Shown: piece after piece, positions 1,546 through 43,689 of the stretch
Position numbering within the stretch: the stretch's first letter is position 1
How the letters are laid out: each line of letters starts with the position of its first letter
Assembly (NCBI GenBank): GCA_973895155.1
Contig: OZ316896.1
Location: 17,844,754-17,908,753 of the forward strand
Origin: Marsupella aquatica
Lineage: Eukaryota > Plantae > Marchantiophyta
Direction: 5' to 3'
DNA length: 64,000 nt
Notes under the pieces: model-generated
Database searches by the model: none
What the model saw: the letters and a program-made list of their open reading frames with translations, nothing else
Told to the model about the DNA's origin: nothing
Program-made: the position numbers and the translations under genes

Positions 1546-4500
1546 ATGGGTCAGGGGGGCTCTTCTAGTCTCACACAATCTGCACAGCCCTGCAATACTA
1601 ATATTCAATTCAAGCAGGTACTATCTTTCCTTGAAACTTTTTTATTTTAATCAGGTACTATCTTTGATCAGTACTTCTTTGGAAATACCCGTTTTGTTTT
1701 GAGATGGCTACTTGCGACAATATGCTACCGAACAATCGATCTCCATCATTACTATTTTGAATTGATCTATCCGTAAGTGTTCTGTTTCTGTGCTGTATCC
1801 AATTTGAGCTCTGAACAGGAATTTTGTATGCTTACTGTACGTTGGCGTGCTTGGGTTTTACAGCTTAATGAATCTCTCTTTGAACTCCACAAACCGAGAG
1901 GGCAACCTAGTATCGTGATCTTATTCTTTCACGGCTTTCAGCATGGAAACTATGAAATGCCCATTTATCAACATGGAAAACTGAGGATGGATCATCCACA
2001 TGGCTCCAGACTTGGCTGGTTGAAGACGACCAGTACCCCGACGCTCACACCCTTTCTGTTGCGTGTAATGCCAGCTTGATGAAAAGCAAGCAAGGAGGAA
2101 GCTTTGACCTATACATCATTGGAGAAAATATTTTGTCAGACTTGCTACAAGCAGATGTCGGGCAACAGCCACTCTGTCCCATAGTATTGGTAGGACACAG
2201 TTTTGGGGGCCTAGTGCTGAAGGAATTGTGTATTCAAGCAAATAAGAGGGGAAGCAGGGGTAGCTCTAAGCACAAAACATTTCTGGAAAATGTAAAGGGA
2301 GTCTTTTTCTATTCCACTCCTCATCACGGGATTTCAAGAGAGATTTCTGAGTATTTTTTGAGCAGAATAAATCAACCGTTATTGGAATATGTAGAAATTC
2401 TTAGCACATCCGCAGCAAGGTTGCATGAAGACTTTGAGATGCTTCGGAAGCAGTGGGCTTGGAAGACGGCAGGAATAGGAGAAGGTTCTGGCACCGAATT
2501 GGTAGGGACATTCTCCTTAGCTTGAGCAATCATATGTAATGGAAATGTATTATTTTTGTCACAATGCTTATGGCGAAATTTCCGACTGCTAAACCAAAGA
2601 AGTGATCAGCAGATACTAGTCATGCTAAAACATTTCTCGACCGTTTTCTGAGTATGTTACTTCAATTCGTCTTATACTAGAATACAATGTGCTGTACGAA
2701 TTTGGTCATTGTTAAGTTCAATTGTATGGTTGCAATCCGGTTCCGAAGGTATTTACAGAAGTGGCATCTTCGAGATTCGATAAAGAATGGATCCTTCGAA
2801 GGATATGATAGATACTTGAGTGGATCGTCACTTGGTTGTGTGTGTGCAGAGCACGTCTAATACAAAGATAGTCGTACCAGAGGGATCGTCAAGATATGGT
2901 GACGCTTTTGTTATCGCGCCAAAGGCTGATCATATATCAATCTGTAGGCCAATATCAAAAATCTCAACCACATTCAACTCCTTGTCCACCTTCCTACATG
3001 GAGTTTCCAGTACTTGGAAGGTGAAGTCAAAATCTTGCTTCTATATCTTGGCATATTTATTGCACAAGATCATGGTGTGGATGGCATATTTATTGCACAA
3101 GATCATGGTGTGGAGGATTTTAGAGTGTTATAATGTGGACCGGTACTTATTTAATTTTCCGTTGCCTTATTGTGGTACAGAGACCAGTCCGTCCACAGAA
3201 CCATCAATCTTTGCCTAAGTTAAGGATTGGTATTGATAATGTCATGAAGGAACTCAAACAGCAGCTTGAGACGGTCACTAGTTTGGGCTTGGCAGGCATG
3301 GGAGGGATTGGAAAGACCACCATGGCCAAGGCGTTATTCAATGATATGGAGCATCTTTATGAGTACACCTGTTTCGTTGGGGATGTGAAGAATTTTCCAC
3401 AGGAGGTTGAGAATATCGTCTTAAAGGAAATGCATTGTATGGGAAGGAGACTAGCAAAGAAGCATGGTGGGTTAGAGTTCTTGGAGGGGAAACAATTATT
3501 GTTGGTACTGGATGATGTTGCTGCAAAAAAACACACTGCAATATTGTCTACCTTGATTCGTGACATTGGTGTCCATGTAGATAGTCGCTTTGTTGTAACA
3601 TCGAGAGATTGCGAACTTCTAGATCAATGCTTGGAGGCAGTGCACAACATGCCCTTTCTAAGCCAAGGAGACGCGAGGAAACTTTTCTTGGCCCATGCTT
3701 TCAGGCAAGAAGCTTCTCCGTTATTTGAGGTACACATAGACATTGTTGTGAAAAAGTGTGGCGGGCTGGCTTTGACTCTGGAAGTCATAGGGGAGCATCT
3801 GTATAAAAAACCTCTGGCTATATGGAAGGAAGCTGTTACTATACTGGAGAGGGCAGATGCTGTGCGCGGATTTGATGAAAAATTGTGGAGTAAGCTTCAG
3901 ATAAGTTTTGATGGTTTGGATCTTGAGGAGAAACACGTGTTCTTGGATTGTGCGACAGTATTCTATTTGCAACCTCTAGATAGGGCAAAGGTAGCATGGA
4001 GCGTCACCACAAATGGGCTTCAAGAAACACTGTGGCAACATCTCGTTGACTTATCGTTGGTCTGCGAAGTTCCTTGGGGAGGTTATCAAAGTTGTGGCAT
4101 GCATGACCAGCTTTTGAGCCTTGGGAGGAAAACTGCATCAAATGAAGTGGAATATGGCCTCAGGATGTGGGATCACCCAAGAAGGGCCTTCCTTTTGTTA
4201 TCATCAGATAATTGCATTGACAATGATGTGAAGGTGAGTTTGAAGAGTATGGTCTTTATCTGACAATTTCCATGCACTGTATCCAAGAATTGCCCAGGGG
4301 TTTGTATCTTGGCCATTTTTGAATGCTGCATGCTGTAGACCAAGGAAGGTCTCCCATGCTGTTGAATTTTCTCAAGACGTCACTGATATTGAGGAATATT
4401 CCACTTTGATCATGGACAGGGCTACCTGTAGCAATTGGGTTTTGAAACTAAGAATGACTTGTGAGTTGAGATTTGTAGGACATTGCGGCTATCAATGTGG

Positions 4501-7426
4501 ATGGACGAGGACAAGGACATTTAAGTAATGACAAGGTTTGTTGGTGGCATTTTGAAAAAGTTATTAAGACAAGATTTCTATAGATGAATCCTTAGAACGA
4601 AATGGATACTTGTGATTTCCTTTTTGATAGGAAGGTACTTAATGAAGAGCCCATTTGGTGTGAATGTATAAATCCTTGTTTTATTGGAATTGTTTTATGA
4701 GAGAGTTCTAGTCTTAGCCACAAACTGAAATGGTTTTTCTCAAACTGAATACTTTTAGAAATGTGTGGACTCATGAGGTTCTGTCAGTAGTATTAGTGCT
4801 TGTTTTTGAATTTTTTTGAAGAAAGTTTCTATGCAAATCTTTTCTTTCACGACCTGCTTTCTTCATTCAATCCAATTTTTGTCAAAAATCAGCCATAGGT
4901 CATGCCTGGTTAAGTAAGTTTGCGGATAGGTTCATTTTGAAAACGTTTTGTTAAAACTGCACGAAAACAGCTATGAGCTTTGCAAAATATCTATTGTGAC
5001 CAATGTTAGAAAGTTTGTGCAAACCGGGAGAGAGATATCGAATGGTAATTCTGTGTTGTCTGGTTTTAATTTTCTTTAGTTTAACTACATTCTAAGTCTA
5101 GGAAATCACCTGTATGCTAGAGGCAATTTGCTGGAGCAGATGCAACTTCAGAAGGTCAGAATGTTTAAAACATGTTTCATAGCTGGTCAGCTGTAACTCT
5201 TAACCTTGAATTTTTCTACTTTGTTCAGGAAAGCGTCACTCCCGTTAATACTGGGGACACCAAAAACAGACCTCTACCAGAAAACTCAACAGCAGAGACT
5301 TCCACCAGGGTCGTCCACAAGTATATACGTTGTGACAAGTGTTCAATGGAACCCATAAAAGGCCCAAGATTCAAGTCTATGGTACAATATGACTATGATT
5401 TGTGTGTCGGATGTTTCGAGAAGGGCGGTCACAGATATGACCAGTATGTTCGTATTGATCTACCTACTGTAAGTAACCGCAAGCGACTGATAGACCTCTT
5501 GAAAGAATTAAAGACATTTTTAATTCATCTGCTCACACACAACTTTTACTATGGAAGGTTTGGCTGGACGCAAACACAGCATTCCCGTTGGAATATTAGA
5601 GTGTATTGAAACAGAGTGCATGATCCAGCTTCTGGAACACATGCCATAAGTGAGCTAGATGTAGATGAACAAATGTTGTAGAAAGTATACAAGTCAGTAA
5701 AGTGATTTAGTCAAAAGAGGTTGAAGGAAGATCAGATAGCTCTAGCACAAACATATCAGACCTCTGACATGCCTGCACTGGATGTTTTGAAATGAATCTG
5801 CGTACAATGGTGGAAAGTTTGATCCATAGTAGCCCATAGTAACCTTTGCTACTGTAGCGTGCTCTTCCGAGACATCTGGAGTGTTGAGGCTGTCCTACTG
5901 TCCCAAGGATATATTACTGAAGAGGAGATGAAAGTGAGTACATTAAGAAACAAATTCTAAGGCGCTTGTAGAGGACTGAGCATAGGAATATTTTCTATTG
6001 GATTATTTTGATTATATGGGGATGAAATAAAAATTGACTTTTGAGTTGGGATTTGTAGGATCATCGGGCTATTTATGAGGGCGGAGGAGCACATGTACAA
6101 TCACATTCTAATGAGGTTTGTTTGATTCCTTGTCTTGACGAAGGAAAAACCCTGTGGCATGATGAGGTTTTGGTGAGATTTGGAAAAATTATTGTGGAAA
6201 AGCACTCTAACCCAGACCTTAGTATAAATGAGTATATAGAACTAGATGTGTATTTGAGTTTTTCTTCTCAGACGGTCCAACATGAAGAGCTACAGTAGTT
6301 TGGTGCAAATGGTTAAAACCTCTTCCTTTAAGCTAAAACTAATAATAAAATCTTCTGAAGAGATGGAACTGATCAGGATAATGAAAGTGTTTTCTTGGAA
6401 TTTCTGGAAATTATTTGTGGATTTATAGTATGACGGAATGCTAAAAAGCTTGTACTGTCGGAGGACATATCTGTAGTTTTGAGGTTGTCCACGTGTCTCC
6501 CAAAGGTACACTCTAAACAAAGTCTTAGAGGATAGATTATTTTCTATTCTATAGTTTCAAATCTGATTTTTCAAGGCAATCTAAGACGGTAGTAGAGGAA
6601 CAAGTACAAGCAAATTCGCACTGAACCATCATTAGAATAAATTCAAAGCTGTGGCCTTCATTACTTAAGCTGACAGTAGTCAAGCCCGTTGCAGACTAGA
6701 AGAGAAACTGACCTGATGTTTGGTGCCGTCAATGGTATTTGGTAGGACTTTCAAACCCTTGAAGGAAGCACATTGTGCAAAATGCGAAATCTGAGATATT
6801 TGCAGATGGCCAACTTGGCCATTGATCAAAGTCATGGTGCAACACTGCCGTCGACACTCGTCGTCCTTAAAATGGTTCGGGTGCAGTTTTCTGATTTCCC
6901 TTTCCGCCCAAGCGACCATGAGCGGATGGCCTTTCTGCACATGTCGGATTGTCCTGAACTTCGTACCCTTCCCACTACTTTTGGCCGACTCTCATCCCTT
7001 CAAGTGTTACATATTTGGAGTGCTCCTCATTTGAAGACCTTGCCTGACTCGCTTGGGAGTTTGCAAAAGCTGGCAGCTCTATGGCTGGTGGATTGTGAGA
7101 ATCTAGCGGAGTTACCGCAAACATTTGGCCAACTGGGAGCTTTGGAAACCGTAGACATTTTTCACTGCGATTCTCTATCAGCCTTGCCAAAGTCGTTTGG
7201 ATATTTACCAAATCTCAAAACTCTGGCTATTTTGGGCTGTCGTCGTCTTCACAACCTGCCCGATACATTCCTGGAGCTTCAAGGATTGGAGACGCTAGTC
7301 CTAGATAGGACATATTTGCAGAGCATTCCCAAATTCGAGAATCTTAGGTTATTGAAAGTCCGTGCATCTCAGGAAGCTCCTCATTTCCGAATCGAGTATA
7401 TCCTACGGCCTCGTCGTACAGTTTAG
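1546..7426 (+). pseudogene. HNL copy 1: alpha/beta-hydrolase-NB-ARC-ZZ-LRR immune receptor with a 1-nt frameshift in exon 2 (pseudogene or assembly error)
   Basis: Predicted phase-0 exons: 1546-1617 (MGQGGSSS..FKQ), 1864-2501 (FFHG, GHSFGG nucleophile elbow, YSTPH), 2850-3020 (ADHISICRP), 3181-4233 (P-loop GMGGIGKTT, kinase-2 LLVLDDV, SRFVVTSR, GGLALTL, MHD), 4479-4535, 5080-5154, 5229-5468 (ZZ), possibly 6059-6115, and 6746-7426 (LRRs LPTTFGRL/LPDSLGSL/LPQTFGQL). TATGAAATG at ~1951-1959 has one A fewer than the paralogs (TATGAAAATG). Confidence 0.88.
5229..5468 (+). CDS. ZZ-type zinc-finger exon (NBR1-like) of HNL copy 1
   Basis: ttgttcag|GAA acceptor and ACT|gtaagt donor, 240 nt, phase 0/0. 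Encodes HKYIRCDKCSMEPIKGPRFKSMVQYDYDLCVGCF..YVRIDLP, which has the CxxC..GPRFKS..DYDLCxxC pattern of plant NBR1 ZZ domains. Confidence 0.85.
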
Positions 7427-7429
7427 AAC

Positions 7430-8400
7430 GAAACTCGCGAGGCTGAGGAGGAAACTGGTGATGAAGAAAGTTGGCTTCTCTTGCAGACAAATACTTGTCA
7501 AATGGCCATTTCTCTACAGTCGATTGACTCAAGGGGGGAGGGTAATCATCGGCAAGTAATCTCGACGAGAGAACATGACTCTGTCTAGTCTTACACGGAG
7601 AACTGGCAAGTCCCACTCGGATTGGGAAGTCTCACAACTGAAACACCTGCGAGAGAGAACCGTCTGGTCTCTGGAGTATGGTGACAATGTATCGACTCCT
7701 TCCTAGACTGTATATTGGTCAGTGGATCTAGACATGGGAGATGCAGCACAGTAGAGTTGGAATTGTCGCGGAGCAGTGTACAGCTACATCCTGATTGCGC
7801 GTGATCCCCTGAATCCATCGGCTAGGGTACGATTTATATGGAGAGATACGTCCAGATAAATGTGCAATCTCGCCATACTCAACCTACCTGATACATTTCT
7901 GTACCACCAGAGACTCGCCGCCCAGGCCTAGTAAGCACACATTTGCAGAGTATTCTTGACTTGGAGAATTTTCCGCTATTGAATGATCGCTGGTTATCTC
8001 GGGCTGACGAAAGTGGAGGAGAATGTAGCTCTTGCAGGCTGTGAATAGTCGAACAGCCATTTCTCTGTAACATCTCCCAATCCATCGCGATCTGAGGGGG
8101 GAGGGGCATCATCTGCAAGTAATCTTCGAGCAATATACATCACTCTGGCGAGTCCAAAGATTGGAACTTCTGGAATGTGTTCGGAACAGATTGATTATGT
8201 CCTCTGCGAACCCCAAATTCTTGAAAGATTGGCCTCTCTGAGTCAACTGGTTATTCCTATCTTGACCCTGGTGTGATCCATGTGGTTAGGAAATTAGTCT
8301 CACCCGGATCGGAAACTAAACAACTGAAACGCCTGCAAGTGAAATACGGTTGGTCATGGAGTAAGGCGATCCAGACAAGGGACATGAAGCAGAGCAAAAT
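7430..8400 (+). pseudogene. Decayed LRR repeats downstream of the copy 1 stop codon
   Basis: Broken LRR-like peptides on + strand: SQLKHLR (~7630), IPESIG (~7805), CNLAILNLPDTF (~7863), LQSILDLENF (~7942). Homologous segments follow copies 2 and 3. Confidence 0.6.
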
Positions 8401-10137
8401 TTGCCTTTCCCAGGAGCAGTGCACAGGTGCGTTTTGATCCCCGATCTCAGCCTGAATGAGTTTTGCCGTTCAGTAGCGCTTGACTCTACTTCGTAATTCT
8501 TTTTTCTAAATATGATAACGTTTGTGTTGTGCTTCACACTATATCATCAGGACACATACCTCGGCAAATTAAGGCTGCAACGGATGCACAGTTTCCATGA
8601 TCGATCATAAGCAGAACCAAAAGTTACCCCCAAGATTCATTTCAAAATATTTAATGGATGCACGTTGCAGTTCTTAGCACATAAACTCGGCAGACTACTC
8701 ATACTTTGTATTGGTAGCAGCCTAGGTCGGTAATAGAAGGTGGATCTTGAGTTCTGATTATTGACTTTATATACAAATGGGAATATGGTGGTTGAAAGTG
8801 CTTAAGACAAACTTTCCATCTAGACTTCGGTGCGATCAGGTCAAATGATCATTAAAAATTTTGGAATGTTTTCCAGAAGGTTGCTTCGTAGGGGTTACTA
8901 ACACAACGTAGATCGAAATGAAAGTAGTGATTACTCCCGAGCAGTTGCTCCGAACTCTGACCGCTGGGTTGAGAAAACATAAAACATTATTGCTGGATAA
9001 TGATACATGTTAGTATCCATTGGAGTGGAATGTGGTATTAATGCTGACTACGTATACTCCCAGGTATACGAAGTGCAGATATAAGCGATGGAGACGGCTT
9101 CTGATGAGAATGTTTACCTCAATTGCTGTGGATTTAGCATCAGACAATTTTGACTCGGCTGCTCAATGAACATTGTCTGCTTCACACTCAGAAGGCCCAT
9201 ATTTGGAGCAAAAAGCCGTTCAGTCAGCTTGGATACTCTCGGACTGCACCTCTTTCCACTTGTGCCCCGACAAGTCACTGAAATCTGCAGCCTAGAATTC
9301 TCCAATCAACGCAGCTCGCAGGGGATGGTCATCAGAATACCTGTGCATGCAAGCTTCCCCCAGTATGAGGAGAAAGAACTGTGGAATTAACTCAAGCTCT
9401 AGCATGTGCTGTTTTGCGCTAAGGGTCGCAACACTTAACTAATTTCGATTACTGCTGTCAGAGGAGGCCCTAAGTACTGAAGTTTTAGCCAGAATATTCT
9501 GAAATCCTCTCGAATATGCGTTTTCATTGTGGAAGGTATTGTGTACTTTCGTGACTACTTCAATGCAGGGAAGATTCTCGAACAGGCAAGCTCTGCATTG
9601 GTTGTGAGGGTGAAGCGCTTTAGAACTTGGAAGTGTATGATTTCGCTACACCTCCACTTCACCACCAGCTGTTGAAAGGAGCACATCATGAGCTCCACTG
9701 ACTGATAATGATACCGAGGAAATTGGTGACATCTGTAGTGAGCAATTGTAGGATTAAATGTTTTTAATACCATACCCTAAGGGAAGGCAGCTGATGTAAG
9801 ATTGAATTCCCTCCCCATGTGGAAAGCTGAAGAGGACTTATTGATGGCTGTAAATTACTCAGGACTGTACATGTTATTTCTGAGACTTGGATGTCACAAA
9901 GCCTTCGAAGGATTTTGGTTTCAGAGTTTACTCCGGGTTGTGACGATGGACGATCACAAAGTTACCATTATTCAACTGAAATTTAGGAGTAACATCAATA
10001 TTACTGAGGAATCATGTTGTGGTATTGAATAACTTTTCGAGTTAACCAGACTTTTTACTGTTGTATACCAATCAAGTGCGGTTTGCAAGCTTTCAAAGAA
10101 ACTGCCTGTTGTTTGCTGCTTTGATGCGATTTGGTAG

Positions 10138-10741
10138 GTCTGATTTCAAGGAAGCACATTGTATAAAATGCGAAAACTGAGATATTGGGAGATCATGGAT
10201 CATTGATCAAAGTCACGGTGTAACACTGCTGTCGACACTCGTCGCCCCTGAGATGTCAACGGTGTTTTTCTCTGATTCCCTTTCAGCCCAAGGGATCACG
10301 AGAGGATGGCCGTTCTGAAAAAGTTGTTATGTCGAGGACTTCACACCCTCCCCGCTTCTTTTGGCCAACTCTCATTCACTCGGGTTATGCATTGACTGGT
10401 ATCCTTTGAAGAGATTGCCTGACTCTGCTGGGAGTTCACCAAAACTGACTTATCTGACTAGCATTGTTGCGTTGCAGTGGTTCAGCTGAGTTACCTAATT
10501 AAGTCATCTGGCCAATTCGTAGCTTTAGAAAGATTGGAAAGTTGATACAGCATTGCTGTATCAACTTTCCCAAAGTCATTTGGATGTTTATCAAGGCTTT
10601 GATATCTGCTTATGAGAGGCTGTTGTAGTCTTCACGACGTGCCAGATACATTCCTACAACTTCAAGGACTGGAGCGCCTTTACCTATAGTCAAATATTTG
10701 CAGATCGTGAGAATACCAGAATTGGAGAATTTAAGATCATA
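10138..10741 (+). pseudogene. Degenerate HNL LRR exon
   Basis: ttggtag acceptor then ggaagcacattgtataaaatgcgaaaactgagatat..., colinear with the LRR exon 6746-7350 through ..ttggagaatttaagatc, with many indels and stops. Confidence 0.8.
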
Positions 10742-14167: not shown

Positions 14168-14490
14168 AGTTGAGGTGTTAGACTTTTAGTCCTTAGTTAA
14201 ATCCCCTAGCTTAGTGGTTGGACGGGGAAAAAATCAAAGTATTAAGGTGGACCCTCAACAAGCTTGAATCCATAGCTAGAAGGGACCCCCTTAATTTTCC
14301 ACTCCATCTCCCGCAAACGGAGAGGGTAGAATAAATTTAAAAAAATAAAAAATCTGTGGGCAGCACAAGCTTGCAACGACGGAATTAACCTCCAAAGTTT
14401 TTTAAAAAACTTATCTACAATTGCTATTTACACTGCCCACCACTCCGCAACCAATTATTCGTGATTCCAGTGACGGGGACCCCGTCACAG

Positions 14491-24900: not shown

Positions 24901-27781
24901 TTGTTGATGGCTTTTTCTGGAGAATGGTTTTGCGGATTGTTGGTGGCTTTCTCCGGAGAATGGGTTTTCGCATTGTTGGTGGCTTTGTGAAAAGTTATTG
25001 TGGAAAAGTTATATTGCAAACCTTCTCGAGATGAATGCTTAGAATTAAATGGATAATTGGGGTTACCTTGTTGAAAGGTATTAGATAAAAGCTCACTTGG
25101 TGTGAATGGATAAATCCTTGTTTTTTGAATTTTTTTAAGTAATAGATATGTAAGCATAGATTACAGTAAAAAAAATTCTCTCAAAGTAATTTGATATTTT
25201 TTGAAGGGCATGGACTCTTTACCCCTATCCGTGAACGCATGACTTATGTATATGTTGGTGCCCCTTTTGGAAATTGTTTGAAACCAGTTCTTACATTGAT
25301 TTGGATTCCAAAAATGGTTTCATGCAAATCTTTTCTTTCTTGCTAGTTCTTGCCACTTCTTTCCCCCAAAAAGGAGCCACTGGTCGTGCCTTGGTAAGTA
25401 AGTTGGCAGATATGTCTGGTTTTTAAACATAGACTAGTAATTCAGTTTTTGGTTCCAATCCCCATCAGCCCACATACATTCAATGAATTATCTACATGCT
25501 AGTCAGGGGTAATTTACTGGAGCAGCTGCAACTCAGAGGGTGAGAATACTTTAAGTAGGTTCATAGTCAATTTAAAGCTCTTAACCTTGAAACTAACAGC
25601 TTGAATTTCTGTACTGTCATAGCTTTCGACCAAGGCCTTCCACGTGGGTGTTCAGCAAAGAGCGGAATGTTCAATTCCGCCCATAGAGGGCCCGAGATTC
25701 AAGTCTAGGGCACAAGTCGACTTTGACTTGCGTCTCCGGTATTTCGATAAAGGGGGGCAACAAAAAAACGAGTATTTTTGTCTCGATCTACCTTCTGTAA
25801 GTAACCCCAAAGCGAAAAATCTCTTGCAACAATTTAAATGCTTGTTAATCAGCATGCCATCAGGTCACACGAAACTCTTACAGTGGAGGGTTACAGTGGA
25901 GGGTTTTGCAGCTTGGCAGAAATACAACATCCCCATTTTGAATCTTAGATTGTTTTTAAAACAAAACGTGTGCGGAACCTTCAGTAACAAATGTCCTAAG
26001 CTGCTTTCAGTGGAGAATGTATAAAAAGTCAGTAAATCGATGATTAAAACATGTTGAAGGAATATAAGTGAGCACAAGCACAACCAGGTCAGATTTTGAC
26101 ATGTCTGCATTAGATGTTTTGAAATGAATCTTGCAGGTAACTTTTTAAAGAAGATTTGCAACTATAGCAGCCTTTGCTATTATCGTGTGCTTCCCCCATG
26201 CATGTGAAGTTCTGAGGCTGACCTATTCTCGCAAGGATATACTACTAATGAGGAGATGAAAGTGAATACATTAAGAATTAAACGAAGATGGTAGTAGAGG
26301 AGGGAGCAAAAGAATATGTTCTAATGAAATATCTTCATTTTATGGGGATTAACTATAAAACTGACTTTTTACTATGGGATATATAAGAGATATTGGGTTA
26401 TGAATGTGGGAGGAGGAGCAAGTGTCGATCCTATTCTCATGACCCTTGTTCTTTTTTGATGTTGCGACAAAGGAGTTTGCCGTATCATTGGTTTGATGAT
26501 GGGATTTGAAGAGCTTTGTATAGTCTAGATACATAGAGCTAAATGTGTAATTGGGTTATTCTTGTTGAAAAAGAACCCAATTAATATCAAACCCTAAAAA
26601 ATAAAAGATCTGATGAAGAGATGGAAAGTTTCACTCTAACAAAACTGGTTTCTGAAAATTTTGGGAAATGTATGTGGGGCGGACTTATAATTGGCCAAAT
26701 GATAGAAAGTTTGTAATCTGAGGAGATGTGTTTGTAGTTTCGAGGTTGTCCATGTGTAGCCCAAGGATATCTTCTAAAAGAGAAGATGAATGTGATTCCA
26801 TTTAGAAACAAAGTCTAAGGTGGCAGGTTATATCCTATCATTTTTAATATTGTTAATCTGGTTTTCAAGGTGCAGTCTAAGACGGAAGTAGAGGACCACG
26901 TACAAGCAAATTTAAAACTGAATCATGCTCAGGAAATATTAATTCAAAGCTGCAGCCTTCATTACTTACTCTGACAGTAGTTAAGCCAAGTGCAAATTAT
27001 GAGAGAAACTAACCTGTTGTTTGGTGCCGTCGATGCCATTTGGTAGGACTTTCCCACCCTGGAAGCAAGCACATTCTGCAAAATGCGAAATCTTAGATAT
27101 CTGGGGTTGTCCAACTTAACCGTTGATCTAACCCATGGTGCAACACTGCCGTCGACACTCGTCTGCCTTCGGATGTATTGGGTGCAGTTTTCTGATTTTC
27201 CTTTCCGCCCAAGCGACCATGAGCGGATGGCCATTCTGCTGATATGGAATTGTCCTGGACTTCGTGCCCTTCCCACTGCTTTTGGCCGACTCTCATCCCT
27301 TCAAGAGTTACGGATTGCTTGGGCTCCTAATTTGAAGAGCTTGCCTGACTCGCTTGGGAGTTTACGAAGGCTGGTATTCCTAGCGTTGGTAGGATGTCCT
27401 AGTCTAGCGGAGTTACCGCAAACATTTCGCCAACTGGTAGCTTTGGAAAATTTACACATACGTGACTGCGATGCTCTTGAGGCCTTGCCAAAGTCGTTTG
27501 GATGTTTACCGAAACTCAAAACTCTGCGTATCATTGGCTGTCGTCGTCTTCACATCCTGCCCGATACATTCCTGGAGCTTCAAAGATTGGAGTCGCTAAA
27601 ACTAGTCTGGACATATTTGCAGAGCATTCCCAACTTGGAGAATCTTAGGTCATTGAAATATCTCCATGTATCTCAGCATGCTCCTCGTATCGAAATCAGT
27701 AGTCTATCAGATTTGATGCGTTGGAAGGCTGAGCGCGAAGCTCGTGAGGTTGAGGAGGAAACTGGTCATGAAGAAAGTTGA
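21980..27781 (+). CDS. HNL copy 2: alpha/beta-hydrolase-NB-ARC-(degenerate ZZ)-LRR, apparently intact
   Basis: Phase-0 exons: 21980-22027 (MAQRASSS..TQ), 22229-22879 (hydrolase, GHSFGG), 23223-23393 (ADHISICRP), 23512-24564 (NB-ARC, MHE), 24808-24861 (DIVAINV..), optional 25623-25796, and 27047-27781 (LRR plus acidic tail). All of these exons are open with GT-AG borders. Confidence 0.88.
25623..25796 (+). CDS. Degenerate ZZ exon of HNL copy 2
   Basis: tgtcatag| acceptor and |gtaagt donor, 174 nt, open frame. FHVGVQQRAECSIPPIEGPRFKSRAQVDFDLRLRYFDKGG..DLPS aligns to the ZZ exon but has RAEC and RLRY in place of the two CxxC pairs. Confidence 0.6.
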
Positions 27782-28180
27782 GCTCTTGCAGACAAATATT
27801 TGTTCAACGCCCATTTCTCTACAGCCGCACCGTGTCGGTTGACGCAAGAAGGGAGGGAAATCGTCGACAAGTAATCTTCTGCGAGCAAGCATGACTCTGG
27901 CTAGTCTCACCCTAATTGAAAGTGCCACAACTGAAACACCTGCGAGGGAGAACCGTCTGGTCTCTGGAGTACGGTGACAATTTGTCGACTCCTTCCTAGA
28001 CAATATATTGTTCAGTATATCTAGACAGGGGAGATGAAGCACATTAGAATTAGAATAATAGTCGCGGAGTAGTGTACAGCTACATCCGCATTGCACATGA
28101 TCACCTGAATCCATGGGCTTGGGAAAGAATTACATGGAGGGATACGTCCAGGTAAATGTGCAATCTCGCCATACTCAAGC
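27782..28180 (+). pseudogene. Decayed LRR repeats after copy 2
   Basis: Colinear with 7480-7880 (caactgaaacacctgcgag, tgaatccat, aaatgtgcaatctcgccatactcaa). Confidence 0.55.
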
Positions 28181-30367: not shown

Positions 30368-31782
30368 GGAGGAAGCTTTCACCTCTACGTTATAGGGGAA
30401 AATATCATTTCACAGCCCTGCAATACCAATATTCAATTCAAGCAGGTACTATCTTTCCTTGAAACTTTTTTATTTTAATCAGGTACTATCTTTGATCAGT
30501 ACTTCTTTGGAAATACCCGTTTTGTTTTGAGGTACTTGCGACAATATGCTGCCGGACAATCGATCTCCATCATCAGTATTTGAATTGATCTATCCGGAAG
30601 TGTTCTGATTTTGTGCTGTATCCAATTTGAGCTCTGTACAGAAATTTTGTATGCTTACAGTACGTTGGCGTGCTTCGGTTTTACAGCTTAATGAATCTCT
30701 CTTTGAACTCCACAAACCGAGAGGGCAACCTAGTCTCGTGGTCTTATTCTTTCACGACTTTCAGCATGGAAGCTATGAAAATGCCCATTTATCAACATGG
30801 AAAACTGAGGATGGATCATCCACATGGCTCCAGACTTGGCTGGTTGAAGACGACCAGTACCCCGACGCTCACATCCTTTCTGTTGCGTATAATGCTAGCT
30901 TGATGAAAAGCCAGCAAGGAGGAAGTTTGACCTATACATCATTGGAGAAAATATTTTGTCAGATTTGCTACAAGCAGATGTCGGGCAACTGCCACTCTGT
31001 CCTATAGTATTGGTAGGACACAGTTTTGGGGGCCTAGTGCTGAAGGAATTGTGTATTCAAGCAAATAAGAGGGGAAGCAGGGGTAGCTCTAAGCACAAAA
31101 CATTTCTGGAAAGTGTAAAGGGGGTCTTTTTCTATTCCACTCCTCATCATGGGATTTCAAGAGAGATTTCTGAGTATTTTTTGAGCAGAATAAATCAACC
31201 GTTATTGGAATATGTAGAAATTCTCAGCACATCCGCAGCAAGATTCCATGAAGACTTTGAGATGCTTCGGAAGCAGTGGGCTTGGAAGACGGCAGGAATA
31301 GGAGAAGGTTCTGGCACCGAATTGGTAGGGACATTCTCCCTAGCTTGAGCAATCATATGTAATGGAAATGTATTATCTTTATCACACTGCTTATGGAGAA
31401 ATCTCCGATTGCTAAAACAAAAAGTGATCAGCAGATACTAGTTATGCTAAAACATTTCTGGACCGTTTGCTGAGTATGTTACTTCAATTCCTGTTATACT
31501 AGAATACAATGTGCTGTACGAATTTGGTCTATGCTCACTGTTAAGTTCAATTGTATGGACAGGTTGTAATCCGGTTCCGAAGTTACTTACAGAAGTGGTA
31601 TCTTCGAGATTCGATAAAGAGTAATTTCTTTGAAGGATATGATAGATACTTGAGTGGATCGTCACTTGGTTGTCTGTGTGCAGAGCACGTCTAATACAAA
31701 GATAGTCGTACCAGAGGGATCGTCAAGGTATGGTGACACTTTTGTTATCGCGCCAAAGGCTGATCATATATCAATCTGTCGG
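30368..31782 (+). pseudogene. HNL copy 4: truncated hydrolase-only relic (copy 1 type)
   Basis: Near-identical to 1583-2948. Lacks the exon 1 start, has a frameshift at ~30925 (ggaagtttg vs ggaagctttg) and an FHG->FHD change, and breaks off after ICR at ~31782. Preceded by a stray 43-bp hydrolase fragment (30368-30410). Confidence 0.85.
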
Positions 31783-32759
31783 CTAATGTTGGCCAATCTG
31801 TCGGTTAATATTAATGTCCCAAATGGTTTTTAATATCATCCAATTTAATATTTAATTTTCCCAAATTTTCATTTTTTGTCCCCAAATTTACATTTAATGA
31901 TGCTTAAATTTTCATTTTTCATCTTCAAAATATATTTACAATTTTCATGCCTAAAACTATGTTTTTAAATCTCCAAATTTCATTATATTCTTTTATCATT
32001 TCAGTTTTAATGATAAAGTGTGTATAGATCTAGATTAATCGTCTCAAAGCTCTGGGTCTCGTTAATCCACACGAGTAGGAAATTCAATTGAAAGTGAGAG
32101 GGTAGGAGACCAGGCAAGAGGGTCAGACACCGGAACCCCCCAGGCAGCACCAGTAGCTCCAAATGAGCACCGGGCCATGAACACAAAATTGCCGATGCTC
32201 GAGGCTTTTCGCAAGTCAGAGGGTGAGCCCTCCAGGGAAGACTATATCACTAAACCACCACCTGAACGTCTCGTAGCAAAACTCCACCTATAATGTCGTT
32301 ACTCTCGCTCGAATTGAGAATGAAATCACTTGTTGTCAATTGAAATCAAATTAAAGTGTACAAACATCTTTCGAGAACCAACGTCAACAAAACTCGCTCG
32401 TTTCTGGTAGATACTTTATAATCTACATGCTGAGAAGAGAACATGGCGACGCACATAAGGTATCTTTCCTCTCGTAGAGAAGTATAAAGAGGGCATCTAA
32501 AAGCGCGCCCCCTCCCCCCCCCCCCCCCCGCCCCTGCTGTGATGTAGGTTCTCTTGTCGGTGACGCAGGTGAAGGCTATCAGTGTAATTGCCTTGAGTAT
32601 CCTCGTAATCGATGCTGAAATCCTGCGCGCAAATTCAATTCAAAGCTCGTGAATCCATTCTGGTTCAAATGGATGTTTGCGACCTTTCAGTAGATCATGC
32701 TAGCAACGACTAAGCGACTACTCCTCAGTCTGCAGTCAAGCACGTACTACCCAACGGCA

Positions 32760-33764: not shown

Positions 33765-36700
33765 TTATTCATGACGAGTTTCCTCCTCAACCTCACGAGC
33801 TTCACTCTCAGCCTTCCAACGAATAAAATCGGATAGACTATCGATTCCGATACGAGGAGCATCCTGATGTACATCGAGATCTTTCAATGACCTAAGATTC
33901 CCCAAGTTGGGAATGCTCTGCAAATATGTCCCGTCTAGATTTAACGACTCCAATCCTTGAAGCTCCAGGAATGTATCGGGCAGGGTGTGAAGACCACGAC
34001 AGCCTCCGATAGACAGAATTTTGAGTTTTGGTAAAAATCCAAACGACTTTGGCAAGGCTGATAGACCATCACAGTAAATTATTCTTAACTTTTTCAAAGA
34101 TACCAATTGGCCAAATGTTTGCGGTAACTCCGCTAGACTAAGACAATCGGATAGCCGTAGATTTGAGAGCTTTCGTAAATTCCCAATCGAGTCAGGCAAG
34201 GTCTTCAAATAAGGAGCCCCAGCAATATTTAACACTTGCAGGGAAGAGAGTCGGCCCAAAGTAGTGGGAAGGGTACGAAGTCCAGGACAATCCCTTATCC
34301 TCAGAATGGCCATCCGCTCATGGTCGCTTGGACGGAAAGGAAAATCAGAAAACTGCACTCGACGCATCCTAAGGGAGACGAGTGTCGACGGCAGTGTTGC
34401 ACCATGAGTTTGATCAATGCTTAAGGCGCGCATCTCCAGATATCTCAGATTTCGCATTTCGCACAATGTGCTTCCTTCAAGAGGGGGGAAGTCCTACCAA
34501 ATACCATCGACGGCACCAGACAACAGGTTAGTTTTTCTAACTACTGTAAGCGGACCTAATGAAGGCCGCAGCTTTGAATTACTCCTAAATAGTGATGATT
34601 CACGAAATTTGCTGGTACTTGGTCCTCTACTACCGTCATAGACTTTACCTTGAAAATCAGAATTAAAACAATAAAACAGATTACAACCTACCTTCTTAGA
34701 CTTTGTTTATGAATGTCATCACATTTATTCTTTACCTTTTCGAACGAATCTTTGGGAGACACGTGGACAACCTCAAAACTACAGATATATCCGAGCAGAC
34801 AGTCAAAGCTTTCTAGCATTTGGTCATCTTAGAAATCCACAGACAATTTCTATAAATTTTGAGAAAAATCTTTCGTTATCCTGATAAGTTCCATCGCTTC
34901 AGAAGATTTTATTATTATTACTACCTTAAAGTAAGAAGTTTTAACCATTCACACCAAACTACAGTAGCTCTTCATGTTGGACCATCTGAGAAGAAAAACT
35001 CAAATACACCTTTAGTTTCATTTACTCATCTAATCTATACTAAGGCCTGGGTTAGAGTGCTTTTCCACAATAACTTTTCCAAAATCTCACCAACAAACTC
35101 ATCATGCCCCAGGGTTTTCCCTTCGTCAAGAAAAGGTAACAACAAACCTCATCAGAATGTGATTGTACATTTCCTCTGCGGCCCTCACCGAAAGCTCGAT
35201 AATCCTACAAATCCCAACTCAAAAGGTCAGTTTTTATTTCATCCCCATAGAATCAAAACAATCCAATAGAAAATATTCCTGTGCTCATTCCTCTACAAGC
35301 GTCTGAGAATTTGCTTCTAAATGTAACCACTTTCATCTCCTCTTTATGAGTATATCCTTGGGGGAGTAGGACAGCCTCAACACTCCTGATGCCTCGGGAG
35401 AGCACGCCATATTAGCAAAGACACTATGGGTCAAAAGTTTCACCATTGTACGCAGATTCGTTTCAAAACATCAGGTGCAGGCATGTCAGAGGTTTGACAT
35501 GTTTGTGCTAGAGCTATCTGATCTTCCTTCAACCTCTTTTAATGAAATCACTTCACTGACTTGTATACTTTCTACATCATTTGAAAGTAGCTCAATTAGG
35601 ACATCTGTTCCAGAAGGTGGATCATGCACTCTGTTTCAATACATTCTAATATTCCAACGGGAATGCTGTGTTTGCTTCCAGCCAAACCTTCAATAGTAAA
35701 AGTTTTGTGTGAGCAGATGAAATACTCATTAAAAATATCTTTAATTCTTTTAAGAGGTCGGTCAGTCGCTTGCGGTTACTTACAATAGGTACATCAATAC
35801 GAACATACTGGTCTTTTCTGTGACCGCCCTTCTCAAAACACCCGACACACAAATCATAGTCATATTGTACCATAGACTTGAATCTCGGGCCCTGTATGGG
35901 TTTTATTCTACACTCGTCACAATGTATATACTTGTGGACGACCCTGGTGGAAGTCTCTGCTGTTGAGTTTTCTGGTAGAGTTCTGTTTTTGGTGTCCCCA
36001 GTATTAACGGGAGTGACGCTTTCCTGAACAAAGTAGAAAAATTCAAGGTTAAGAGTTACAGCTGACCAGCTATGAAACAGTTTTTAAATATTCTGACCTT
36101 CTGAAGTTGCATCTGCTCCAGCAAATTGCCTCTAGCATACAGATGATTTCCTAGACTTGGAATGTAGTGAAACTAATGGAAATTAAAACCAAACAACACA
36201 GAATTACCATTCAATATCTCTCATCCGGTTTTCTAACATTGGTCAAAATAGATCTTCTCGCAATTGAAAGGTCATGACTGTGTTTGTGCAGTTCAGCAAA
36301 ACAAATTCAAAAAGAACCTATCTGCTTAACCAGGGATGTGTAGTTTGCTTGACCAGACATGACCTATGGCTCATTTTTGACAAAAAAGTGGCCTGAATGA
36401 AGAAAGCAGGTAGTGAAAGAAAAGATTTGCATGGAAACTTTTTTCAGAAAAATTCAAAAACAAGCACCAACACATACTGACAGAACCTCACGAGTCCACG
36501 CATTTTTAAAAATATTCACTTCGAGAAAAACCATTTCAGTTTGTGGCTAAGATCAGACCTCTCTCGTAAAACAATTCCAAGTAAACAAGGATTTATACAT
36601 TCACACCAAATGGACTCTTCATTGAGTACCTTACTATCAAAAAGAAGATCACAAGTATCCATTTTAATTAGTTCTAAATATTCATTTAGAGAAGTCTTGT

Positions 36701-39669
36701 CTTATAACTTTTCCACTGACCACCAACAAACCTCGTCATTAGTTAACTTTTTCAAAATGCCACCAACAAACCTCGTCATTAGTTAAATGACCTTGTGCTC
36801 GTCCATCCACATTGATAGCAGCAATGTCCTACAAATCCCAACTCACAAGTCATTCTTAGTTTCAAAACCCAATTTCTACATGTAGCCCTGTCCATGATCA
36901 AAGTGGAATATTACTCAATATCAGTGACGTCTTGAGAAAATTCAACAGCATGGGAGACCTCCTTGGTCTACAGCATGCAGCATTCAATAATGGTCATCAT
37001 ACAAAACCCTGGGCAATTCGATGATGCAGTGCATGAAAACTCTCAGATAAAGACCATACTTTTCAAACTCACCTTCACATCATTGTCAATGCAGTTATCT
37101 GATGATAGCAAAAGGAAGGCCCTTCTTGGGTGATCCCACATCCTGAGGCCGTATTCCACTTCATTTGATGCTATTTTCCTCCCAAGGCTCAAAAGCTGCT
37201 CATGCATGCCGCAAGTTAGAGTATCAGCGAACTGAGTATCTTCCCAGACCAACGATAAGTCAAGAAGATGTTGCCACAGAGTCTCCTGCAGCCCATTTGT
37301 CGTGATGCTCCATGCTGCCTTTGCCGTAGCTAGAGGTTCCCGATGGAACACTGTCGCACAATCAAGGAACATGTGTTTTTCCTCGAGATCTAAACCATCA
37401 AAACTTATCCGAAGCTTACTCCACAACTTCTCATCAAATCCACGGACAGAATCTGCCCTGTCCAGTATAGAGATCGCTTCCATCCAAATCGCCACAGGTT
37501 TTTTATACAGATGCTTCCCGATGACTTCCAGAGTCAAAGCCAGCCCACTGCACTTTCTCACAACAATGTCTATGTGTTCCTCAAACGAAGGAGAAGCTTC
37601 TTGCCTAACAGCATGGGCCAAGAAAAGTTTCCTTGCATCTTCTTGGCTTAGAAAGGGCATAGGGTGCACTGCCTCCAAGCATTGATCTAGAAATTCCCTA
37701 TCTCTGGATGTTACCACAAAGCGACTGTCTTCATGGATACCAATGTTTCCAATCAAGGTTGACAGTAGCGTAATGTGTTTTTCCGAAGCCACATCATCGA
37801 GAACCAACAATAACTGTTTCCCCTCCAAGAACTCTAACCCACCATCCTTCTCTGTGAACCTCCTTCCTATATGATGCATGTTCCTTAAAACCATACCCTC
37901 AACATCGTGCTCACTATAATTCTTCACCTCCCCAACGAAACAGGTGTACTCGTAAAGATGCTGGATATCATTGAATAACGCCTTGGCCATGGTGGTCTTT
38001 CCAATCCCTCCCATACCGGTCAAGCCCAAACTAGTGACCGTCTCAAGCTTGTGTTTCAGTTCTTTCATGACATTATCAATACCAATCGTTGATTTGGGTA
38101 AAGATTGACGGTTCTGAGGCCTGACTGGTCTCTGTAATCCAACAATGAATACAAAGAAAATCTAAAATAAGCACCGGTGGACACAAAGCGACATAGCACT
38201 ACCTTCTGTATTAAGTACACCAAAAATATGAGAGATAATTTGACTTCACGTACCTTCCAAGTAATGGAAACTCCACGCAGGAAGCTGGACAAGGACTTGC
38301 ATGTTCTTGAGATTTTTTATTTTGGCCGACAGATTGATATGTGATCAGCCTCTGGCACGATAACAAAGGTGTCTCCATATCTTGACGATCCCTCCGGTAC
38401 AATTACCGGTGTTTTAAATGTGCTCTGCGCACATACAAGCAAAGAAGCAAGTGACGATCCAATGAATGAAGCATCTACAATATCCTTCACACAAATTACT
38501 CTTGATCAACTCCCTTATATGCTACTTAGATGACTTAGTACTAAACTAGGTGGTATCCATAGAAACGAAACTGTTACTGCGCATTGCCTTCTTCTATCAG
38601 TTCTATGGAATGAACTGAAACAAATTAGTCAACAATCGAGAAAATGTTTTACCGTCTATAAGTAATATCTGATCATTGATTTGCTTTAGAAATAATTGGA
38701 AGCTGTCAGAAATCTTCAATATATTTCCATTTCATAAGATTGAGAGTGAATGCCCCGTACCAGATGGGTAGGTAAACCTTCTCCTACTCCTGCCGTCTGC
38801 CAAGCGCACTGCTTTCGTAGCTTTTCAAAATCTTCATGCAATCTTGCTGCGGAAGTACTCAGGACTTTCACATATTTCAACAAGGGTTCATTTGTTTTGC
38901 TCACAAAATACTCGGAAATTTGTCCTGAAATCCCATGATGAGGGGTGGAGTAGAAAAATGCCCCCTTGATATTTTCCAGAAAGGTTTTGTGCTTGGAGCT
39001 ACCCATGCTGCCTCTCTTATGTGCTTGAACACACACTTCCTTCACTACAAGGCCCCCAAAACTGTGTCCTACCAATACTATGGGACAGTGGGGATCTTGC
39101 GCAATATTTGCCTCTAGCAAATCAGAAATAATATTTTCCCCTATGACGTAGAGGTCAAAGCTTCCTTCTTGGTTGCTTTTCATCAAGCTCGCATTATACT
39201 CAACAGAAAGGATGTGAGCATCGGGGTACTGGTCGTCATCAACCAACCAAGTCTGGAGCCATGTGGATGATCCATCCTCTCGTCCATCGTCAGTTGTCCA
39301 TGTTGACAAATGGGCATTTTCATAATTTCCATGCTGAAAGCCGTGAAAAAACAAGACCACCATGCTAGTACGGCCATTCGGTTTGTAAAGTTCAAAGAGA
39401 GATTCATTCAGCTGTAAAACCCAAGCACGCCAACGTACCGTAGGCATAGAAATTAGCTGTATAGATTGGATAAAACAAAAAAAAACTGAAACCTCGGAAA
39501 AACTAAAATACTCATGATCATTGAGATAGATCTTCAGATTGCATACTGTCCAAAGTATCAATCTCTAAACAGAACGGGCATTTCCAAACAGGTTCAGGTC
39601 GAGGTCAGTGCCGTAAGATACCTGACTAATTGTGTTATTGGTGCGACTAGAAGAGCCCCTTTGAGCCAT
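33765..39669 (-). pseudogene. HNL copy 3: alpha/beta-hydrolase-NB-ARC-ZZ-LRR with an in-frame TAA in exon 3
   Basis: Exons on the minus strand: 39669-39622, 39411-38761, 38424-38254 (TAA at 38319-38317 where copy 2 has TCA), 38131-37073 (NB-ARC, MHE), 36828-36772, 36172-36098, 36023-35784 (ZZ), possibly 35204-35148, and 34493-33765 (LRR). Confidence 0.87.
35784..36023 (-). CDS. ZZ-type zinc-finger exon (NBR1-like) of HNL copy 3
   Basis: 240 nt, phase 0/0. Encodes HKYIHCDECRIKPIQGPRFKSMVQYDYDLCVGCFEKGGHRKDQYVRIDVPI with all four Cys retained. Confidence 0.85.
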
Positions 39670-43231: not shown

Positions 43232-43689
43232 TTTCCAATTCTTTTCCCCAAGATTCGTCCACTGACGAGTTCATGGCCTGCCATGCAATGTACCCACATA
43301 CTACAGTACGTGTGTGACGATACAATAATAAAAAATAATTTTGCTTGACATGCACGAAAGTATGCCGACTTGTGGGCAGATTTTCGTTTGTGTGTTGAAA
43401 GGAGTGTTTTGTTTGAAAGAGTAATAAACCTGAATTGATATATTAGTATACAGTGTAAATTGACTCGAGTTGTGTGATTGACGAGGTTGAGATTGAATCG
43501 AACCTGTCCAATTGACGAGAGATTCAGTCTAAGCAGTCTGATGTCGACAAAGAGTGAGTTGCTTTATTTGTTTGCAAACACCACCTACGACTGATAAGTT
43601 ATGTTTGGGCTCTGTAGTAGGCTAGTGTGTGCTCGGTTGACTTGGCCTGGCACCGTGGTCCATGGCCATCCAGGTCAATCTGCTTTCTT

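Follow-up and report, generated by a model that had tools for sequence, protein, structure and literature searches.

What is a ZZ zinc finger doing inside the immune-receptor genes of a leafy liverwort, and where did it come from? A first-pass annotation of a 64-kb stretch of Marsupella aquatica DNA (the window) had described genes of the order hydrolase-NB-ARC-ZZ-LRR. We observed that this order held. Pfam scans of the copy 2 exons matched DUF676 at E 1.6e-6 (above the cut-off) and NB-ARC (PF00931) at E 4.5e-27, and LRR families (LRR_14, LRR_8 and others) were matched on the LRR exons of copies 1, 2 and 3. The NB-ARC has GMGGIGKT, LLVLDDV and MHE/MHD motifs, with GLAL replacing GLPL. The hydrolase has the nucleophile motif GHSFGG, and the His motif DHISIC of copy 2 lies in the exon after the hydrolase exon. 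Judged by our own patterns, 26 of the 39 homologues from liverworts retain the Ser, Glu and His motifs, and a Ser-Glu-His triad is predicted; among PDB sequences, the hydrolase exon had no match below E 0.26. On these predicted domains the locus is a tandem cluster of liverwort-type, enzyme-headed receptor genes. All exons are predictions from sequence, and the copies were counted within the M. aquatica window only (Table 1).

Table 1. Predicted features of the hydrolase-NLR cluster, in positions of the window
Feature	Position	Strand	Remarks
Copy 1, hydrolase-NB-ARC-ZZ-LRR gene, probable pseudogene	1546..7426	+	frameshift, early LRR end
Copy 1 exons	1546-1617, 1864-2501, 2850-3020, 3181-4233, 4479-4535, 5229-5468, 6059-6115, 6746-7426	+	
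Copy 1 ZZ exon	5229..5468	+	240 nt, phase 0/0, four Cys and D/D/D intact
Copy 1 second 57-nt mini-exon, 3' of ZZ exon	6059..6115	+	duplicate of the mini-exon preceding ZZ
Decayed LRR-exon remnant, same family	10105..10704	+	8 stops in tblastn match
Copy 2, sole open model among window copies	21980..27781	+	961 aa
Copy 2 exons	21980-22027, 22229-22879, 23223-23393, 23512-24564, 24808-24861, 25623-25796, 27047-27781	+	
Copy 2 alpha/beta-hydrolase exon	22229..22879	+	DUF676-like, GHSFGG nucleophile motif
Copy 2 NB-ARC exon	23512..24564	+	GMGGIGKT, LLVLDDV, GLAL, MHE
Copy 2 decayed ZZ exon	25623..25796	+	174 nt, open, AG/GT; PIEGPRFKS core retained, zinc Cys gone
Copy 4, truncated	30411..31830	+	frameshifted hydrolase exon and beginning of exon 3 only
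Copy 3, probable pseudogene	33765..39669	-	in-frame TAA 38319-38317
Copy 3 exons	39669-39622, 39411-38761, 38424-38254, 38131-37073, 36828-36772, 36023-35784, 35204-35148, 34493-33765	-	
Copy 3 ZZ exon	35784..36023	-	240 nt, phase 0/0, four Cys and D/D/D intact

The ZZ exons of copies 1 and 3 were present as first annotated; the damage to the genes had been overlooked, both of these copies being broken and the open copy 2 having a decayed ZZ. In copy 1, a base missing from an A-run near 1955 shifts the frame of the 638-nt hydrolase exon, and the LRR exon (6746-7426) stops early. In copy 3, the stop is codon 269 of the model, in exon 3. These two lesions were read from the assembly, and no X1 piece shown covers either; seven of the eight X1 pieces shown were identical to the window (2,333 nt), and X1 may be the source sample. 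The mini-exon duplicates of copy 1 aligned with a local score of 190 (shuffle maximum 155). Copy 3 is a mosaic, copy-2-like in its 5' half and copy-1-like in its ZZ cassette. The four runs aligned to copy 1 are contigs that continue through introns; of their 20 joints 15 were listed, and not one of these matches a predicted intron. These runs have no bearing on expression. Downstream of the ZZ, 72 nt similar to the end of the NB-ARC exon were rejected as an exon: there is a stop in copy 2 and, by inspection, neither copy 1 nor copy 3 offers an in-frame acceptor.

The claim of a clean phase-0 exon between the NB-ARC and LRR exons was confirmed for copies 1 and 3. Both ZZ exons are free of stops and bounded by AG/GT (5' flank TTTGTTCAG, 3' flank GTAAGT), and encode HKYIRCDKC..PIKGPRFKS..YDYDLCVGCF..YVRIDLP in copy 1 and HKYIHCDEC..PIQGPRFKS..YDYDLCVGCF..YVRIDVP in copy 3. 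Both pass the Pfam gathering cut-off for ZZ (E 2.1e-10 and 4.6e-10, respectively). The copy 1 ZZ modelled alone reached a pLDDT of 91, and its best structure matches were ZZ domains, HERC2 among them (Z 9.4, rmsd 2.1, 53 aligned); against the p62 ZZ the values were Z 6.8, rmsd 2.3 and 48 aligned. The finger is the 4-Cys, single-zinc form with PIxGPRFKS and D[YF]DLC, the second zinc site (C142/C145 equivalents) being missing. In the full-length model the insert sits between strands 645-649 and 743-747, the first two LRR strands. The pLDDT of the ZZ is below 50 in that model, so no contact with the NB-ARC or LRR is predicted.

The arrangement is not local, as it recurs in gene models of Calypogeia fissa. 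Of the 25 C. fissa homologues, five have a ZZ, or what is left of one, in this position: P0005 and P0007 have the hydrolase-NB-ARC-ZZ-LRR architecture, P0003 has it with a tandemly doubled front, and P0006 and P0010 have remnants. Judged from gene models here and, independently, in C. fissa, the ZZ is a non-canonical domain lying in frame within the receptor. The insert was absent from all 14 Marchantia and Riccia homologues, and from P0075, the single Physcomitrium patens homologue examined; when only the ZZ of copy 3 was used as query, a word search, which is a weak method, gave no match. In the NB-ARC tree the window copies are sister to P0005-7 (support 100) inside an 18-row C. fissa clade, which implies that the insert is older than that split. 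This grouping and the liverwort-type setting also bear out the placing of these genes in a hydrolase-NLR class of non-seed plants. A single ZZ origin for both C. fissa subclades was neither supported nor rejected (AU p 0.42, in a set from which a motif cut dropped 4 of 18 database proteins and to which P0003 was added separately). In P0009 the same LRR loop holds an acidic non-ZZ insert, indicating that the loop tolerates insertions. Apparent long loops in P0011 and P0012 were pattern mis-hits; these loops are short.

We further examined the source of the finger. Among 162 ZZ proteins, the best non-NLR BLAST match for six of the seven NLR ZZs was ZZ2, the second of the two ZZs in an NBR1 paralogue of C. 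fissa with the form PB1-ZZ-ZZ-UBA-UBA; the exception, P0007, matched another NBR1 best (61.6 vs 61.2 bits). In the ZZ tree (54 columns, 75 rows, canonical liverwort NBR1 absent from the set), the NLR ZZs and this ZZ2 formed one clade (SH-aLRT 89, unstarred), nested in a larger NBR1-type clade of green plants (94), in agreement with the first-pass grouping. The linker upstream of the ZZ ranked first and second of 404 linkers. By plain identity the copy 1 and 3 ZZs were nearest to an angiosperm NBR1 ZZ (58-60% vs 53%). The HMMER search covered the best 150 matches ranked by whole-protein score, which favours multi-ZZ proteins, so that single-ZZ NBR1s, the canonical liverwort NBR1 included, were under-sampled. 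Because of the BLAST matches and the tree support, the NLR ZZ was likely captured from an NBR1-family autophagy receptor.

The ZZ of plant NBR1 contributes to the binding of non-ubiquitinated cargo (PMC11587852), and angiosperm data describe NBR1 as capturing pathogen proteins or being their target (PMC13164681, PMC7760648) and as needing PB1 and ZZ to accumulate at haustoria (PMC6029844). With these published links and its likely NBR1-family origin, the finger probably derives from a host protein that pathogens engage. In the literature seen, no pathogen protein was mapped to the NBR1 ZZ, the passage of PMC13140610 describing tests of the UBA domain. The reading that we favour, with somewhat better than an even chance of being right, is that the ZZ of this cluster, which was likely taken from an NBR1 paralogue and lies in the loop that follows the first predicted LRR strand, is an integrated bait for pathogen proteins that attach to NBR1 or that NBR1 itself binds. 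Ligand binding to the ZZ would loosen the clamp in which the LRR and WHD keep the NB-ARC; ADP would be swapped for ATP and the receptor would oligomerise. The clustered hydrolase domains would then set off defence or kill the cell, either unaided or together with a partner NLR; in N. benthamiana, two Marchantia Hyd domains are reported to elicit HR-like cell death (PMC11218826). On this view, copies 1 and 3 would be recently dead alleles of ZZ sensors, and copy 2 a receptor whose bait has decayed or whose specificity has changed.

A tolerated passenger, that is, an NBR1 exon in a permissive phase-0 intron and a flexible LRR loop, sensing nothing and now decaying or skipped, is rather unlikely in our judgement, yet it fits two observations equally well: the only intact ZZs of the window lie in broken copies, and the zinc ligands are lost in three of the six open models (copy 2, P0006 and P0010; P0007 is without the DxD acids). 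The exon can be skipped in frame, and the loop accepts other inserts, as in P0009. The dN/dS of the ZZ was 0.69-0.81 (compared with 0.19-0.31 for the hydrolase, 0.31-0.38 for the NB-ARC and 0.89-1.07 for the LRR), a value based on 16 changes, from which relaxed and diversifying selection are not separable. Against a passenger, the PIxGPRFxS core is retained in all eight NLR ZZs and the four Cys in five of them, in two lineages whose NB-ARCs are ~35-50% different. The copy 1 and 3 ZZ exons differ by 10 amino-acid changes, none at a Cys or Asp. In favour of the bait reading, five of these changes are clustered in a stretch of 8 residues at the CDxC knuckle (p 0.02 after scan correction, with the width of the scanned stretch picked after inspection of the data). 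The copy 2 remnant gave no Pfam match but has kept its frame and splice sites, although 15% of such remnants would do so by chance. On our best reading, the ZZ is an integrated bait or sensor under birth-and-death turnover, its cassette shuffled between paralogues.

The integrated-bait reading has a more far-reaching form, which we regard as unlikely: the cargo-binding finger of a xenophagy receptor, grafted into a leafy-liverwort NLR, would read free N-termini or NBR1-captured pathogen proteins, its specificity loop diversifying between paralogues and binding activating an oligomeric hydrolase. If true, autophagy-type cargo recognition would be coupled directly to a non-TIR, non-CC catalytic immune output.

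The first-pass annotation had also proposed an Arg/N-degron reader. The ZZ would then work like that of p62, KCMF1 or PRT1, and a neo-N-terminus from a pathogen protease or from host processing would activate the NLR. The top sequence and fold matches are indeed ZZ domains solved with N-terminal peptides, and variation is concentrated at the side-chain-specificity loop. The equivalents of the three p62 acids D129, D147 and D149 (PMC6098011) are all present in copies 1, 3 and P0003. Retention of the Asp residues of CDxC and DYDLC thus stood for copies 1 and 3, while the set is incomplete in the other five of the eight NLR ZZs, and in ZZ2, the likely donor, Asn takes the place of D147. In place of Asn132 the window copies have S or R, and the NLR ZZs as a whole S, R or Q. 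The missing second zinc site is said to position D149, and the mammalian NBR1 ZZ may itself not be an N-recognin (both from passages of PMC6098011). With the acids complete in so few copies and the Asn132 position variable, an N-degron role is doubtful, and we consider it quite improbable.

Least probable of all, and very unlikely, is a regulatory or trafficking module that connects the NLR with partners in host proteostasis or autophagy, such as NBR1 cargo or chaperones, setting its turnover or location without pathogen sensing: the AtNBR1 ZZ/FW binds the host proteins ROF1 and EXO70E2 (PMC11587852), and purifying selection on the hydrolase and NB-ARC makes a housekeeping control element plausible, but such a module should be conserved, whereas the ZZ decays repeatedly in open genes, is missing from 20 of 25 C. 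fissa homologues, and in Pfam scans has no PB1, ATG8-binding or UBA part alongside.

For now, the ZZ-NLR is an architecture with a well-supported origin, as read from sequence. We know of no ligand or activation route for any bryophyte hydrolase-NLR; the 50-residue ZZ would offer a handle, usable as bait to find the activator of the receptor and hence liverwort pathogen targets. An NBR1-derived domain would indicate that pathogens contest selective autophagy in liverworts as well as in angiosperms, with the ZZ as one contact surface, and NLRs may be able to take up sensor modules in the loop that follows the first LRR strand. According to a passage of PMC11218826, pathogen-induced NLR immunity is yet to be demonstrated in non-flowering plants.

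The architecture had been thought undescribed, and we found no paper describing it; "ZZ" is too short a term to search, and the supplement of Chia et al. 2024 may list ZZ among its Hyd-NLR integrated domains. No papers on Calypogeia and NLRs were found, the one supplementary file of PMC7145615 held no ZZ term, the supplement of PMC12787737 held no ZZ match, and additional file 3 of Sarris et al. 2016 (PMC4759884) held no ZZ row among its six zinc-finger rows. ZZ (PF00569) has been reported with NB among the NLR-like proteins of the moss P. patens (PMC7145615). That is a likeness in a bryophyte, in a passage that gives no architecture, position or origin.

The bryophyte Hyd-NLRs, for example those of Marchantia polymorpha (Chia et al. 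2024, PMC11218826; Andolfo et al. 2019, PMC7145615), share with the window genes the DUF676/PGAP1-like hydrolase with GHS[FY]GG, the TNL-like NB-ARC and the LRR. The Marchantia members are ~37-41% identical over the NB-ARC, and the best solved-structure match of a C. fissa model was the TNL RPP1. The difference is the ZZ insert in the first LRR loop, found in none of 12 Marchantia and neither of two Riccia members. The p62/SQSTM1 ZZ N-recognin (PMC6098011) is alike in fold and in the acids of copies 1 and 3; unlike it, the NLR ZZs are without the second zinc site and Asn132, and the acids are gone in most relatives. The C. fissa paralogue (CAM6119610.1 / CAM6104089.1) and plant NBR1/Joka2 share the 4-Cys single-zinc ZZ, PIxGPRFKS and [DN][YF]DLC. 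With the second ZZ of the paralogue the NLR ZZs are 44-57% identical, and the upstream linker is similar. From such proteins the NLRs would have taken only the ZZ and a short linker; FW (N_BRCA1_IG) had no Pfam match in the paralogue itself. Familiar NLR-IDs are RRS1-WRKY and RGA5/Pik-1-HMA. Like NLR-IDs generally (Sarris et al. 2016, PMC4759884), the ZZ is a host-derived domain of a pathogen-engaged protein, has an exon to itself and shows turnover and decay. It differs from other NLR-IDs in its probable donor, an autophagy cargo receptor, in its site within the first LRR turn, and in the enzyme head of the NLR.

We observed three full-length hydrolase-NB-ARC-LRR gene copies in the 64-kb window using six-frame motif scans and self-comparison, along with a truncated copy and an LRR remnant. 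The exons, as predicted, had AG/GT ends and were in phase 0, and the Pfam domain order was DUF676 (the hydrolase), NB-ARC, ZZ (a 4-Cys zinc finger) and LRR. In copies 1 and 3, the ZZ exons of 240 nt agreed with the first-pass annotation. Among protein relatives, those of Calypogeia fissa, a leafy liverwort, were closest (up to 66% across the NB-ARC), and Marchantia came next (about 40%). Among the other elements in the window, the LINE-like reverse transcriptase lies as if within a DNA element, and the ORF fragments are possibly, as a guess, a decayed DNA transposon.

Gene copies and other features of the window
Feature	Position	Strand	Basis or remarks
Copy 1, hydrolase-NB-ARC-LRR gene	1546-7426	+	motif scans, self-comparison
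Copy 2, hydrolase-NB-ARC-LRR gene	21980-27781	+	motif scans, self-comparison
Copy 3, hydrolase-NB-ARC-LRR gene	39669-33765	-	motif scans, self-comparison
Copy 4, truncated	about 30.4-31.8 kb		motif scans, self-comparison
LRR remnant	10.1-10.7 kb		motif scans, self-comparison
Decayed LRR-like repeats past stop codons, all three copies	about 7500-8350, 27800-28180, 33700-33200		
Conserved 72-nt stretch after ZZ exon	5862-5933, 26190-26261, 35402-35331		ends ...GAGATGAAA, then GT
Broken LINE-like reverse transcriptase	44022-46847	-	RVT_1 E 8e-15
Inverted-repeat arms enclosing the reverse transcriptase	43079-43399 / 47796-48114		97-98% complementary
MITE-like element	17858-18746		219-nt inverted arms, 89% complementary, spacing 451 nt
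Fragments of protein-like ORFs	52200-54934		one with weak Ish1 match (E 0.0017)
Tandem array	57826-59381		3.8 copies, period 409 nt, 92% matches

As assembled, an A-run near 1955 is one base shorter in copy 1 than in copies 2-4, which puts the hydrolase out of frame; the LRR exon of copy 1 also ends prematurely. Exon 3 of copy 3 carries a TAA in place of the TCA of copy 2; skipping this exon would keep the frame and lose the conserved His motif. The reading frame of copy 2 is open (961 residues), but of its ZZ exon only 174 nt remain, and these no longer encode the zinc cysteines. Since copies 1 and 3 are broken and the ZZ of copy 2 is decayed, no gene of the window combines an open frame with an intact ZZ, and the ZZ-intact copies are probably dead genes. 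Contigs under a second organism label (X3, X4) skip 149 nt in 5422-5572, including the 3' end of the ZZ exon and its donor site, which suggests a further paralogue with a damaged ZZ exon.

When we examined 107 NB-ARC homologues (619-2000 aa), a ZZ or its remnant was seen in five, all from C. fissa (5 of 25, as against 0 of 12 in Marchantia and 0 of 2 in Riccia). As gene models rather than transcripts, P0005 and P0007 were DUF676-NB-ARC-ZZ-LRR, the fingers of P0006 and P0010 were decayed, and P0003 was a ZZ carrier whose front is doubled. A quick tree of the NB-ARC placed the window copies (99) as sister (100) to P0005-7 (99), so the ZZ insert is older than the split of these lineages. P0003/P0010 formed a separate ZZ-bearing clade within an unresolved group, and a single ZZ origin was not rejected (AU p 0.42). 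We conclude that hydrolase-NB-ARC-ZZ-LRR is a real architecture, found across species and with a traceable donor. Five C. fissa models (P0001-P0004, P0008) had two NB-ARC domains, which may reflect tandem fusion or the merging of gene models; in P0003, part of the hydrolase and the NB-ARC are repeated ahead of the ZZ. Three other C. fissa hydrolase-NB-ARC-LRR proteins (P0038, P0039, P0041) carried TPR repeats at the C terminus, a further extra-domain type of Hyd-NLR.

A profile built from five NLR ZZs gave 3,267 matches among 1.84 billion representatives (E 0.001). When the 150 matches listed were rescored domain by domain, the top score outside the NLRs (79.8 bits) went to the second ZZ (ZZ2) of a PB1-ZZ-ZZ-UBA-UBA protein from C. 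fissa; next in the same list, at 76-54 bits, came NBR1-type ZZs of land plants and Closterium together with one ZZ from an alpha-kinase. This protein ranked first of 11 in a second search, whose query already included its ZZ2. ZZ2 was also the top BLAST match for six of seven NLR ZZ regions, and the linker upstream of it ranked first (copy 3) and second (copy 1) of 404. In a tree of 75 rows and 54 columns, all seven NLR ZZs grouped with ZZ2 (SH-aLRT 89), nested in a green-plant NBR1-type clade (94); P0006, with its CDxC deleted, was omitted, and canonical liverwort NBR1 was absent from the set. However, the plain identity of the copy 1 and 3 ZZs peaked with the ZZ of one angiosperm NBR1. The NBR1-type assignment made earlier is thus borne out by profile scores, BLAST, linker rank and tree clade: an NBR1-family origin is well supported, and the C. 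fissa paralogue is the likely donor, although not settled. The NBR1-like proteins P0117/P0255 of C. fissa (PB1-ZZ-ZZ-UBA-UBA, which for a plant is a p62-like layout) and P0148 of Riccia fluitans (PB1-ZZ-ZZ) have two ZZ domains and gave no Pfam match to FW (N_BRCA1_IG). In P0145, two 4-Cys-like ZZ domains are joined to an alpha-kinase.

The ZZ had been placed between NB-ARC and LRR, which holds for the domain order but not for the exact site. In homologues without ZZ (P0014, P0015, P0008, P0001), 29-40 residues separate the DIVAL strand, past the MHD-type motif, from the LRYL strand; in ZZ carriers the gap was 90-158 residues. An AlphaFold prediction for P0005 (mean pLDDT 78; best PDB match, the TNL RPP1) puts the insert, itself modelled at low confidence, between one strand at 645-649 and another at 743-747. 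From these gaps and this model, the ZZ lies within the first LRR turn. P0009 has a long acidic non-ZZ insert in the same loop (residues about 640-720). Two related 57-nt mini-exons flank the ZZ in the window (scores 190 and 226 versus shuffle maxima of 155 and 150; the likeness in copy 2 was not significant by this test), and the pair suggests a local duplication around the cassette. The 72-nt stretch past the ZZ exon resembles the end of the NB-ARC exon and is probably a leftover of that duplication.

Copy 3 shared 95-98% identity with copy 2 in the part that begins at exon 1 and ends within the NB-ARC, but across the ZZ cassette it was closer to copy 1 (86-96%) than to copy 2 (67-81%). The cassette has been exchanged between paralogues. 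Nei-Gojobori dN/dS, over pairs that are not independent, was 0.19-0.31 for the hydrolase, 0.31-0.38 for the NB-ARC, 0.69-0.81 for the ZZ and 0.89-1.07 for the LRR. That the ZZ is a decaying passenger, as its remnants might suggest, seems to us unlikely, while deserving some weight. Between the ZZ exons of copies 1 and 3 there are 16 nucleotide differences in 240 nt and 10 amino-acid differences. No Cys or Asp is changed, and five of the 10 fall in an 8-residue stretch around the CDxC knuckle (p 0.02, with the stretch chosen post hoc).

The domain had also been proposed as an N-degron reader, and a structure model with fold matches gave a ZZ fold. In p62, the alpha-amino group is gripped by D129 and D149; D147 holds the first peptide bond and N132 holds the side chain, and both zincs keep these residues in place (PMC6098011). 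The equivalents of D129/D147/D149 were complete in three of eight NLR ZZs (copies 1 and 3, P0003), incomplete in the other five, and not a full set in the likely donor ZZ2. Because so few keep these acids, the window copies have S or R at the N132 position and there is no second zinc site, a conserved Arg reader is unlikely; the ZZ may possibly bind a variable N-terminus or peptide. Overall we consider the N-degron role improbable, and a proteostasis tether slightly more doubtful still.

We lean, by a small margin over even, towards the ZZ being an integrated bait in the NLR. We infer each step of the chain by which an NBR1-derived ZZ would lead from ligand to output. ADP/ATP exchange and oligomerisation are established behaviour of NLRs. 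Angiosperm NBR1 ZZ and FW bind non-ubiquitinated cargo (PMC11587852); pathogen proteins captured by NBR1 include XopL, CaMV capsid and HCpro, and those that engage it include SDE4405 and PexRD54 (PMC13164681, PMC7760648); its accumulation at haustoria requires PB1 and ZZ (PMC6029844); and two Marchantia Hyd domains elicited HR-like death (PMC11218826).

In a literature search that reached few subscription papers and used terms other than 'ZZ' alone, we found neither a hydrolase-NB-ARC-ZZ-LRR protein nor an integrated domain derived from NBR1 described; one may still be in print. The six zinc-finger rows of the Sarris 2016 supplement include no ZZ, and P. patens has none there either; for P. 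patens NLR-like proteins, ZZ is mentioned once in PMC7145615. Hyd-NLRs, and integrated domains inside them, are already described in PMC11218826 and its preprint. The window genes and the C. fissa models are of the same kind as known NLRs with integrated domains, with the ZZ on a Hyd-NLR as the variant.
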